From Eledone cirrhosa (lineage: Eukaryota), in the NCBI GenBank assembly GCA_964016885.1, contig OZ024751.1, forward strand, positions 20,088,001 to 20,152,000: DNA of 64,000 bases. Direction: 5' to 3'. Under the pieces are notes generated by a model, which worked only from the letters and a program-made list of their open reading frames with translations, was not told the DNA's origin and made no database searches. How positions within the stretch are numbered: position 1 is the stretch's first letter; each line of letters begins with the position of its first letter. Positions 2,961 through 25,457 of the stretch are shown in pieces. The translations under genes were made by a program, and so were the position numbers.

Positions 2961-3771
2961 TTCTTCTGGTTTTATAATTTCACAAAGTTTTACCAATAGA
3001 GATAGAGTCGGTTTCTAACATAGACACAAGACTCTCTCATTGGAATTTACACAACATCAACTAGGTAGATATGTATGTATGCATGCATGTGTAGATATGG
3101 ATGTTATTGTATGAGTGGATGTGGATGTTTTGAGTTGTATGTGTGCATGTGTATATGCTTTGTATCTGTACATGTGTATATGCAGTTATTAGATGCAAAA
3201 TTTGTGGAATGTTTTATATATTTTTACTGTTCCATTAATGGATTGTACTTGTAGTTTCCTAACTAGTTGTGTTATTTCTGTTCCTGTGAAGCCTAGCTTC
3301 TCAAGATTTGTATTGAGGCAGTTACTAACATATCCCAGTGCCCCAACAATCACAGGCATAAATCTGAAGGTGTAATCAGGGTGGAGTATCTGCAAATTTC
3401 TCATCAGTTCTGCATAAATATTCACCTTTTCACTAATCTTTGATATTATATTGGCATCTGCTTGGCAGCTAATTTCCACTACTGTGGATGTTTTCTTCTC
3501 CCTGTCCCATATCATAATATCTGGTCTGTTATGCCTGCATTTTATTGGGGTTTTTACTGGAACATTCCACCAGTACTCTTTCATATTATGTACATGGATG
3601 TCTTCCACATTGTTGTAGCTTTTAATGTGTTTATTATCGGGGCTATCTTTTTTACTAACTGCATTGTACAGTTTTTTGGCCACTATATCATGCCTCATAG
3701 GTAGATAGTACCGCGATGACATCTTTGGACAGCTGCTGATGACATGGGTGATATCCTCGATGTTAGTTCTA
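2961..3771 (-). mobile_element. 5'-truncated non-LTR retrotransposon with restriction-like endonuclease (R4/Dong-like)
   Basis: ORF C-terminus plus ~230 bp 3' UTR ending in a (CATA)n tail. The 5' truncation abuts (TA)n. Confidence 0.8.
3189..3770 (-). pseudogene. C-terminal zinc knuckle plus RLE domain of a non-LTR retrotransposon ORF
   Basis: In-frame [10 protein letters not shown] (HxxxxC half of the CCHC knuckle), RHD motif, WWN..V, NRPDI, VVEISC, K...Y: the PD-(D/E)xK RLE signature. Confidence 0.85.
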
Positions 3772-3820
3772 AATATATATATATATATATATATCCATTA
3801 TATATATATATATATATATA

Positions 3821-16029: not shown

Positions 16030-16890
16030 TACAATTGTAAAAGTCATGAGTTCGATACTCAGTAGCACGTTTTGTCCTTCAGCAAGACACTTTACTTCAC
16101 GTTGCTCCAGGCCCCACGGGTGGGAAAAAAAATGAGTTATACCTCTAATTCAAATAGCCAACCTTGTCACAAAATATATCCCACTGAATCTCCCTGAGAA
16201 CCACTTTAAAAGTAGACAGACATGTCTGTGGAATACTCAGCCACTTGCATATTAATTTCACAAGCAGGCTGTTTCGTTGATCAAACACGGACACACACAC
16301 GCACACATACCCCTCAAACGCTGAATCTCCCTGAGAATTGTGTTAAGAGTATATATGTATATGGGATACTCAGCCACTTGCATGTTAATTTCACAAGCAG
16401 GCTGTTTCGTTGATTAAACAGGGACACACAAACCCCTCACACGCTGAATCTCCCTGAGAATTAAGTTCAGAGTAGACATGTCTGTGGAATACTCAGCCAC
16501 TTGCATGTTAATTTCACGAGCAGACTGTTTCGTTGATGGAACACAGACACACGCTGAATCTCCCTGAAAATTATGTTAAGAGTAGACATGTATATGGAAT
16601 ACTCAGCCACTTGCATGTTAATTTCACAAGCAGGCTGTTTCGTTGATCAAACAGGGACACACATACCCATCACACGCTGAATCTCCCTGAAAATTATGTT
16701 AAGAGTAGACATGTATATGGAATACTCAGCCACTTGCATACTAATTGCAAGAGCAGGCTCTTTCGTTGATCGAACGCGGACACACGCTGAATCTCCCTGA
16801 GAATTATGTTAAGAGTAGACATGTCTGTGGAATACTCAGCCACTTGCATACTAATTTCATGAGCAGGCTCTTTCGTTGATCGAACGCGGA
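16030..16890 (+). repeat. CORE-type SINE whose 3' tail is amplified into a 6-copy ~110-137 bp minisatellite
   Basis: CTGAATCTCCCTGA at 16184, 16321, 16444, 16554, 16677 and 16786, downstream of the SINE head TTGTCCTTCAGCAAGACACTT. Confidence 0.85.
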
Positions 16891-17639
16891 CACACACACA
16901 CAAAACACATATACACACATTCTTACCCATCATATACATATACATACACCTTATAGCGATGTAGAATCCTAATTGTTATTCATTTGATTGTAGTATATTT
17001 AATTGTTCGGTTTAGATGTTTGGTGAATGAAGCCTTGTCTATGTAGAGTTATATTGTTGGTGCGGTTAACTATCGTTTCTCCCTTTGTGTTATATACCCA
17101 GACGTGGGAGATTTTAAAGATTAAAGAATGTTAAGTGTTTTCATAGCTTTTGTTAATGTATTCTTCACGAAGAATACACCATCTTGCTTTTGTGCTCAAC
17201 TATGAATCTCATTGTAATATTTAAGAGGAGAATTTGTTGTTTATATCAAGTGTTTCTTTGTATATACACCGTTATATATCCGGTGTGGGAAGTATGAATA
17301 TACTCGTATGTTGGTTCAATTTCAATGATTCGAAGAGGTAAATTATGTTAATTGTTATACCCTAAATCTGAATTGTTATTTAGAAGTCTGGAAGTGGAAC
17401 TTGAGTACCTTATTTAAAGATGATACAGTGGGAGGGAGCATTTACATGGTTGTTTGACCTGTCTAATGTTTGGGGGTTAGATAGGGATAAGGTAGGGGTC
17501 CTAATCTGAGAAGACAATTTTGTCTTCAATGAAAGGTTCTGCCCTAAAAATGTTTAAACCCATTGTTTCGCAAAATGTATCGTGGGACTTCAGAAGGAGA
17601 CATACGATATATTACGCTGTGTACTAACTTTGTATATAT

Positions 17640-22994: not shown

Positions 22995-23455
22995 AATTTC
23001 GTTTCATTCTTTTCCATTTATGGTTTTCGGTGCGCCCGGCCGACTAACTCCCTCGATATGCAAATTAGGCTGCTCAGCCGTTAATATGCATAAGGAAAGT
23101 ATATACTTTCAGACGTTCGACCATCTGACAGAAAGGTATACGATGCTGACGATAGCTAATAAGCTTGAAACTAGTACATCGTTCCTGTATCAGTGTTGAA
23201 CAAAAAGGTGACGATGGTTGCCTGAACACTGTACGGCTTAATTCGGGATGTTTGTTTACAAACAAACCAAACATGATAATAAATGTTCGGTAAACCCATA
23301 CGTACATATACATATGTGTGCATGTATGTATATATATACATACTACTGTACGTCTGTATACATATATGTATGTACGTATACATACATACTTACATTTAAG
23401 TACCAGCCGTACTAAGAGTGAGAAATAGAATTTGGTTTCATTATTTTCCATTTAT
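22995..23455 (+). mobile_element. Retrozyme-like monomer (434 nt unit plus 27 nt terminal redundancy) in (TA)n
   Basis: AATTTCGTTTCATTCTTTTCCATTTAT at 22995 recurs with 2 mismatches at 23429; one internal HHR. Confidence 0.75.
23140..23182 (+). ncRNA. Minimal hammerhead ribozyme, family H4
   Basis: ACGATG-CTGACGA-T-AGCT-AATA-AGCT-T-GAAA-CTA-GTA-CATCGT, with palindromic ACTAGT stem III. Confidence 0.85.
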
Positions 23456-23480
23456 ATATATATATGTATATATATATATG

Positions 23481-23583
<103 letters not shown>

Positions 23584-23593
23584 GTATATATAC

Positions 23594-23800
<207 letters not shown>

Positions 23801-23864
23801 TATATATATACATATATATATATGTATATATACATATATATATATGTATATATACATATATATA

Positions 23865-23896
<32 letters not shown>

Positions 23897-23931
23897 CATA
23901 TATATATACATATATATATATGTATATATAC

Positions 23932-24819
23932 ATAAAAACAAATAACGAAACGAAATTAAATTTCGTTTCGTTTGTAACTCACTTTTGTATGACTGACGCT
24001 TAAACAATTAAGTTAAAAATGTACATCCACATATGTATACTGAAATACTAGTATGCATATGAATACACACACGTGTACATATGTAGATGTACCGAGTTTT
24101 TCACTGGACAGTTTACTGTGAGTGTCCAGCTATTCTGTCTGGCTTTCTGGAGAATAGAGGAAAGGTGTTTCCTCGAAAACCAGTATGACTCTAAAAACCG
24201 GTTTGTCTGTGTGTTTACATACAGAATAGCTGGACACTCACAGTAAACTGTCCAGTGAAAAACTCGGTACATCTACATATGTACACGTGTGTGTATTCAT
24301 ATGCATACTAGTATTTCAGTATACATATGTGGATGTACATTTTTAACTTAATTGTTTAAGCGTCAGTCATACAAAAGTGAGTTACAAACGAAACGAAATT
24401 TAATTTCGTTTCGTTATTTGTTTTTATCGTCTCCGCTGAACCGGTATGTACTCACGCTCTATGCAAATTAGTCTGCCCACTACTAATTTTCATAGAAAAA
24501 GCATATAACGATATGTGCTTTTACGATTCTCTAGAAAGGCCGGAAGATAGGTAAATATTGCTGATGAGATGTAACAACATCGAAACTAGTCCAATATTCC
24601 TTGTCTGGCTTTCTGGAGAATAGAGGAAAGGTGTTTCCTCGAAAACCAGTATGACTCTAAAAACCGGTTTGTCTGTGTGTTTACATACAGAATAGCTGGA
24701 CACTCACAGTAAACTGTCCAGTGAAAAACTCGGTACATCTACATATGTACACGTGTGTGTATTCATATGCATACTAGTATTTCAGTATACATATGTGGAT
24801 GTACATTTTTAACTTAATT
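23932..24819 (+). mobile_element. Retrozyme-like element: 1.47 tandem copies of a 466 nt unit plus a 207 bp inverted arm, in (TA)n
   Basis: 24136-24353 is repeated at 24602-24819; 23932-24138 is the reverse complement of 24221-24427. Confidence 0.9.
24554..24598 (+). ncRNA. Canonical-core minimal hammerhead ribozyme, family H4
   Basis: AATATTG-CTGATGA-GATGT-AACA-ACATC-GAAA-CTA-GTC-CAATATT. Perfect stems I (7 bp) and II (5 bp); GUC site at 24591. Confidence 0.92.
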
Positions 24820-24830
24820 ATATATACATA

Positions 24831-24862
<32 letters not shown>

Positions 24863-24921
24863 CATATATATATATGTATATATACATATATATATATACA
24901 TATATATATATGTATATATAC

Positions 24922-25002
<81 letters not shown>

Positions 25003-25059
25003 CATACATATATACATATATATACATACATATATACATATATATATATACATATATAC

Positions 25060-25090
<31 letters not shown>

Positions 25091-25105
25091 CATATATACA
25101 TATAT

Positions 25106-25136
<31 letters not shown>

Positions 25137-25190
25137 TACATACATATATACATAATATACATATATACATATATATATATAAATATATAC

Positions 25191-25277
<87 letters not shown>

Positions 25278-25457
25278 CATATATACATATATATATACAT
25301 ATATACATATATATATATACATATATACATATATACATATATATATATACATATATACATACATATATATATATATATATAGGCGTACGCATCTGTGTGT
25401 GTATGTATGTATGTATCTATAAATATATGTATGTATCTCTGTACATGTGTGTGTGTG

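Follow-up and report, generated by a model that had tools for sequence, protein, structure and literature searches.

A young non-coding hammerhead repeat of Eledone cirrhosa, with signs of Penelope-type priming at both ends on a probably circular RNA

According to the accessible parts of two papers, metazoan non-LTR retrozymes are tandem repeats without coding capacity; each unit carries one type I hammerhead, the GC content is low, the predicted circular fold is stable and Penelope-like elements co-occur (PMC7229834; bioRxiv 10.64898/2026.07.22.740005). Both propose that circles serve as templates for the Penelope enzyme. Since 2014, proposals to explain tandem Penelope elements and animal retrozymes have had ribozyme-cut RNA reverse transcribed in a rolling circle (available portions of PMC4209133 and PMC7229834), and the available text of the 2026 preprint describes the mechanism as still to be worked out (bioRxiv 10.64898/2026.07.22.740005). 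Endonuclease-bearing Penelope-like elements form partial tandems with an inverted 5′-truncated copy, a tail that is often one-sided, two internal start sites and hammerheads with a palindromic helix III, and they target microsatellites or AT-rich DNA (accessible parts of PMC8557442, PMC3846280, PMC11167929 and PMC4209133). Non-autonomous Chlamys elements such as MRC1 are non-coding, multicopy, arranged head to tail and moved by Penelope enzymes (PMC8557442, in the part available).

The 466-nt family described here resembles these elements in structure and is probably moved in the same way. Its circles are predicted from DNA, whereas those in the accessible retrozyme literature were demonstrated by northern blot. 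Its hammerhead resembles that described for axolotl and newt, with a helix III of one pair and a palindromic tetraloop. Unlike the endonuclease-bearing elements, as far as the available descriptions go, its unit has no ORF, its tail measures 74 nt rather than 30 to 40, the pairing of one tail end with one short end is nearly strict, and both arms of an insertion can span many units. The Chlamys elements generally resemble their autonomous family at the 3′ end and are described, in the accessible part of PMC8557442, without canonical hammerheads; the 466-nt unit has a hammerhead and no homology to the one partner compared. Likewise, 24 of 57 frog retrozyme families have homology to transposable elements, nearly all of them Penelope-like, as opposed to none for the 466-nt unit with one element compared. 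Head-to-head arms with two fixed priming ends, haplotypes that cross from arm to arm, Penelope fusions and putative editing marks repeated across units are features of this family that the available parts of both retrozyme papers do not describe, and a search of titles and abstracts, with most subscription journals outside its reach, returned no paper with such evidence. The class of element is nevertheless already known: it is a non-LTR retrozyme inserted like a non-autonomous Penelope element.

The focal insertion and its hammerhead

The focal element occupies positions 23932 to 24819 of the 64-kb window, i.e., the whole stretch of DNA that was analyzed. It contains a 218-bp direct repeat (24136 to 24353 and 24602 to 24819, period 466) and a 207-bp inverted repeat (23932 to 24138, the reverse complement of 24221 to 24427), both exact and without mismatch, as the initial annotation had given them. 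We numbered the unit from 24592, the first base 3′ of the predicted cut. In these terms the element consists of two arms joined head to head, an inverted arm on the minus strand (23932 to 24138; 0.44 unit, positions 96 to 302) and a forward arm on the plus strand (24136 to 24819; 1.47 units, positions 11 to 466, then 1 to 228), which overlap by 3 nt of unstranded microhomology at their junction (24136 to 24138). The forward arm begins at unit position 11, in agreement with the annotated start of the first copy 11 nt past the cleavage site. Its outer end is the fixed short (S) end of the family and that of the inverted arm is the fixed "tail" (T) end; together they bound the 74-nt tail (unit positions 229 to 302; 24354 to 24427, plus strand), inside which lies a 13-bp hairpin (24387 to 24415). 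Unstranded (TA)n microsatellites on both flanks (23453 to 23931 and 24820 to 25381) form the left and right parts of the target site. Target duplications are unreadable within (TA)n, at this site as at others.

No frame of at least 120 aa lies inside the element, those touching its edges being (TA)n read-throughs, and the ORF listing of the window contained no partner element. The focal element is a single insertion of a non-LTR retrozyme, a young hammerhead repeat of 466 nt that codes for no protein. These observations support the earlier proposal of a young retrozyme-type element primed at (TA)n. The accompanying remark that the unit reaches or exceeds the known maximum for metazoan retrozymes has to be dropped, as 466 nt is within published ranges; the accessible parts of the literature give repeats of 150 to 450 bp (PMC7229834) and consensus lengths of 51 to 972 bp (bioRxiv 10.64898/2026.07.22.740005).

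The type I hammerhead motif (24554 to 24598, plus strand; predicted cut after 24591) comprises a 7-bp stem I, the CUGAUGA core (CTGATGA at 24561), a 5-bp stem II, GAAA, and GUC at 24589 to 24591. All core bases are present in what the initial annotation called a perfect hammerhead. However, helix III has only 1 to 2 bp, formed by the palindrome ACUAGU (ACTAGT in DNA), and an Rfam search gave no match at the gathering score. Hammerheads with a short palindromic helix III are inefficient alone and active as dimers, according to the available part of PMC4209133. The predicted dimer fold of the unit did not yield the active form, and 8 of 9 frog retrozyme dimers showed no cutting in vitro. Among 241 units that cover stem II, a compensatory change affects both sides in 16 and a single side in none; these 16 double changes may descend from one inherited event. 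Self-cleavage of the unit RNA and its closure into circles are predictions made from the DNA. In a large subfamily (50 units, e.g., L063 to L065), GUU replaces GUC at the cut site (unit position 466), and its arrays are still young.

A separate insertion, a diverged sister retrozyme of about 1.06 units (22995 to 23455, plus strand), adjoins the focal element. It aligns end to end with the 466-nt unit, ends at the homologous T site, and has its own hammerhead (core at 23146) and, at 23058, the octamer ATGCAAAT that the focal element carries at 24461 to 24468 (plus strand). An snRNA-type promoter is known in newt; that the octamer has a promoter role is purely our guess.

Elsewhere in the window, a loose pattern picked out hammerhead-like motifs of other families on the plus strand (10987, 11221, 20483, 31618, 40107, 41998 and 55090) and, at about 22820, 32287, 39949, 51649, 53969, 54337, 54898 and 60370, on the minus strand, some of which may be due to chance. 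Other tandem repeats are found at 16302 to 16896 (periods of 110 to 233) and 34444 to 34838 (149 bp). A 202-aa frame at 3189 to 3797 (minus strand) presumably resembles the C-terminal part of a non-LTR retrotransposon protein.

Fixed outer ends and scattered inner junctions

In the 3.0-Gb genome, the 31-nt ribozyme core has 1,633 exact copies and a 24-mer near unit position 228 occurs 3,571 times. A looser pattern for this ribozyme type gave 40,638 matches, from several sister families, versus 21 in the control; arrays of the sister families have periods of about 424 to 496 nt. The unit contains 170 G+C out of 466 nt, and its predicted circular fold (−156 kcal/mol) was reached by none of 60 shuffled sequences. 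Tandem arrays range from 2 to about 30 units. No copy examined at the mapped loci flanked a longer internal region as an LTR, the arrangement that, in the initial annotation, would have refuted an RNA model for the focal locus.

We mapped 31 loci chosen by similarity and 38 found by pattern along one contig, and a hand tally gave 110 arms from 66 insertions, some of them at loci chosen because they held a full unit or a ribozyme. Five loci were left out (L041, L074, L080, L096 and L097) because of an end beyond the fetched stretch, an N gap, interruption or divergence, as were the second arm of L060 and extra segments in L036, L038, L049, L079 and L099. A few ends were adjusted by eye, e.g., the inner end of L087 and the outer end of L090.

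The outer ends of all 110 curated arms fall at unit positions 205 to 234 (S) or 291 to 303 (T). In each of the 44 curated two-armed insertions the arms face head to head, one with an S end and the other with a T end; 16 of 17 further two-armed loci follow this pattern, and the focal locus obeys the same rule. A short second arm of the opposite end class was found at 7 of 19 apparently one-armed loci, and 5 of 6 sister-family loci have the same pair of ends, the sixth being ambiguous. The exceptions are L099, with a segment ending at 396, L147, and the chimera L037, which has two tail ends. Nearly all outer ends are flanked by (TA)n or otherwise AT-rich DNA. An inverted truncated copy and a tail at a single end are Penelope hallmarks (PMC8557442, PMC3846280), and in work with a purified Penelope-like protein both strands of AT-rich DNA were cut and extended, with starts at two internal sites of the RNA that delimit the tail (PMC11167929), as far as the accessible parts of these papers go. 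Penelope-type priming at both ends of the target is therefore well supported, and we hold it to be highly probable.

The same architecture with differing inner junctions recurs at 60 of the 61 two-armed loci tallied, which argues against both an assembly error and the spread of a simple DNA satellite through recombination. The focal locus does sit within long (TA)n tracts, and none of the listed contigs from public sequencing runs spans its inner junction. However, such contigs show position 302 followed by (TA)n, in runs that may come from the assembly's own sample; among nine loci inspected for a target-site duplication, one of 8 bp was present at L054, with a longer one at L091; and stem II covaries. 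We consider either explanation extremely improbable. A similar unit is also present in two sequencing runs of other organisms. No RNA data set was among the sequencing runs listed as containing the unit, a result that has no bearing on its expression.

Unlike the outer ends, the inner junctions of the 110 arms are scattered around the whole unit, near uniformly after correction for exposure. The initial annotation had raised the possibility of varied permutation points among copies, which is the case for inner ends, whereas outer ends are fixed at two internal sites, as in Penelope-like elements, a pattern that leaves the RNA model standing. Microhomology of 1 to 8 nt is present at 21 of 41 arm junctions, an approximate count.

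This distribution bears on the model first advanced for the focal locus, in which a single priming event was followed by a stop near the cleaved 5′ end, and the cDNA folded back and copied itself. One arm is contained in the other at 34 of 44 two-armed loci, the focal locus among them, a single haplotype is common to both arms, and self-priming has been proposed for Penelope inverted repeats (available part of PMC3846280). A slight excess of junctions at positions 1 to 30 (12 versus 6.6 expected, p = 0.04 uncorrected, nine bins) also goes in this direction, as does the arm of L147 that ends at the cut site inside a 4-nt microhomology. Nevertheless, positions 1 to 15 are not enriched (5 of 110 versus 3.25 expected), no junction of the 110 falls at positions 1 to 3, and the second arm invariably ends at a fixed site of its own (302 at the focal locus). 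In 10 of the 44 insertions each arm includes unit sequence that its partner lacks, which means that neither can be a copy of the other, and at L037 and L045 the arms derive from two different elements. Fold-back would suit the focal locus taken alone and, judged by these junctions, is not compatible with the family; we regard it as very improbable.

The nature of the template

The cut site is passed by 92 of the 110 arms and at least twice by 46, in head-to-tail tandems; the focal locus carries one ribozyme only. Cut linear monomers alone were thus not the template. The claim that the ribozyme site was copied through from a circular or multimeric RNA is borne out by the same count, in which some loci had been picked for a full unit or ribozyme. 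Head-to-tail arrays might still be built from a pool of cut linear monomers if the enzyme jumped from end to end, and template switching does occur (L147) and a few arrays are mosaic (L041). Such jumping is at odds with the 247 crossings of the cut site, none of which has an indel within 3 nt, and with the single haplotype carried by most arrays although the family has many. It appears very improbable.

Rare variants give further indications. At 9 of 41 two-armed loci they are present in every unit of both arms. At 4 of 41, a variant is common to both arms in only some units, which means that some templates were not monomers. The focal locus carries a rare C at unit position 123 in all three passes and on both arms (24714 and 24248 on the plus strand and, inverted, 24111). 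Genome-wide this variant occurs seven times, at the focal locus and at L048 only, and L048 has two further differences from the focal haplotype in all its units. The position-235 variant has 10 exact copies at its own array and 16 single occurrences, of which the five fetched are on other haplotypes; that at position 251 has 4 copies at its own array, and its 5 single occurrences, each of them fetched, differ from that array in haplotype; and that at position 432 has 17 copies at its own array and another 13 spread over four loci, none of them on the same haplotype. For all four variants, the assembly yielded no source array of the same haplotype in an exact-pattern search, which misses copies with nearby changes. 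The source array may be absent from this single assembly.

These data have to be weighed against two-ended Penelope priming on a linear, uncut multimeric transcript of an array, with uniform and long arrays arising by later duplication and conversion. Source arrays of 2 to about 30 units would be plentiful, the weak helix III predicts poor cutting (accessible part of PMC4209133), most of the frog dimers stayed uncut, and ribozyme cutting is unnecessary for insertion in vitro, where uncut RNA is the main substrate (available part of PMC11167929). L053 and L102 carry unit-specific variants in the same register on both arms, a pattern that points to multimeric templates there, and block duplications that are visible in arrays L062 and L094 can also spread a variant. 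On the other side stand the missing same-haplotype sources, the fixation of rare variants in both of the mutually inverted arms of insertions that are short and young, an outcome that duplication of a single arm does not give, and L143, whose 6.7 units over two arms show no difference from one another. A linear multimer is a possible template, yet on balance an unlikely one. A circle would explain why the sequence of a single unit was multiplied on both arms. This falls short of proof, and a circular template seems likely to us.

An edited template may be recorded at one locus. Across the family, A>G changes outnumber T>C changes only slightly (14 versus 10, p = 0.25), and a family-wide editing signature was rejected as not significant. 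At the two-armed locus L123 (G000:C5:63087000-63096900), which was found through the search for A>G changes, A>G changes on the ribozyme strand make up 8 of 12 recurrent variants versus 14 of 203 singletons, with the search site left out of the count (p = 2e-7, post hoc). Its nine sites all follow A or U and are no more paired than other adenosines (0.66 versus 0.63). Along the T arm, two types of unit take turns over all five positions. The last two units of each arm are of these types, identically ordered, and the long S arm is partly reshuffled. A double A>G change at 272 to 273 recurs on four haplotype backgrounds. An edited dimer circle would account best for L123; the alternative is a parent array with a two-unit period.

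A candidate enzyme and the proposed mechanism

Two fusions connect the 466-nt unit with Penelope-like elements. In L045 (590 to 2627), a T arm meets, head to head and without intervening (TA)n, the final 1,170 bp of a coding element; this stretch is the 3′ portion of a young, putative GIY-YIG element and stops at that element's own short end. In L147 (1710 to 1890), an arm continues through a 5-nt microhomology into the last ~35 nt of the tail of a second, related element. The two loci suggest machinery common to the unit and Penelope-like elements, without singling out the family that moves it. In L037 (685 to 2524), an arm of the 466-nt unit is joined to a sister-family array.

The candidate partner is the element fused in L045. 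It contains an open frame of 882 aa (L107:1432-4077, minus strand) that includes a CX4CxxC linker, its tail measures 60 nt, and all 40 copies scored, out of 1,285 candidates, were near-identical. Its Pfam matches to reverse transcriptase and GIY-YIG domains are weak and under the curated cut-offs. Both ends are visible in 8 of its insertions, and 6 of these pair a short end with a tail end. Comparison of the unit with the repeat of this first candidate, the one element compared, revealed no homology, the best match being 17 nt of low complexity. The guess that the two share a tail hairpin failed on comparison. Two other arrangements were seen at arms of the unit. At L057:723-1754, a Penelope-like frame of a different type, which has no Pfam match, is followed after 80 nt by an arm that runs in the same orientation. 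At L063:2680-3750, the inner end of an arm abuts another kind of tandem repeat, of about 390 bp.

We propose, with a probability of roughly 0.7, that a Penelope-like enzyme cuts (TA)n and uses each of the two DNA ends to prime reverse transcription of a single, probably circular RNA. Tandem arrays would be transcribed, and paired hammerheads would release monomers or short multimers that would then be ligated into circles. After the (TA)n tract is cut by the Penelope-like enzyme, one enzyme would start at about position 302 and another at about 228, with variable run lengths (0.44 and 1.47 rounds at the focal locus), and repair would join the two cDNA ends. Duplication at the DNA level would further lengthen long arrays. 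In its most specific form, a double rolling circle, the enzyme pair would work on one closed RNA, a monomer or dimer that is sometimes A-to-I edited; the two cut ends would be primed at sites 74 nt apart, and the enzymes would chase each other around the circle. We rate this reading as a whole as slightly better than an even bet.

Taken alone, the focal locus is a modest example, the stronger evidence coming from its sister copies. If true, the double rolling circle would be genomic evidence for a circular-template step that has so far only been proposed, in the accessible literature, and it would name an RNA and a candidate enzyme for in vitro testing. The family is young and abundant, and this lets a mechanism be read from DNA, with its two start sites, its candidate enzyme and its marked templates.
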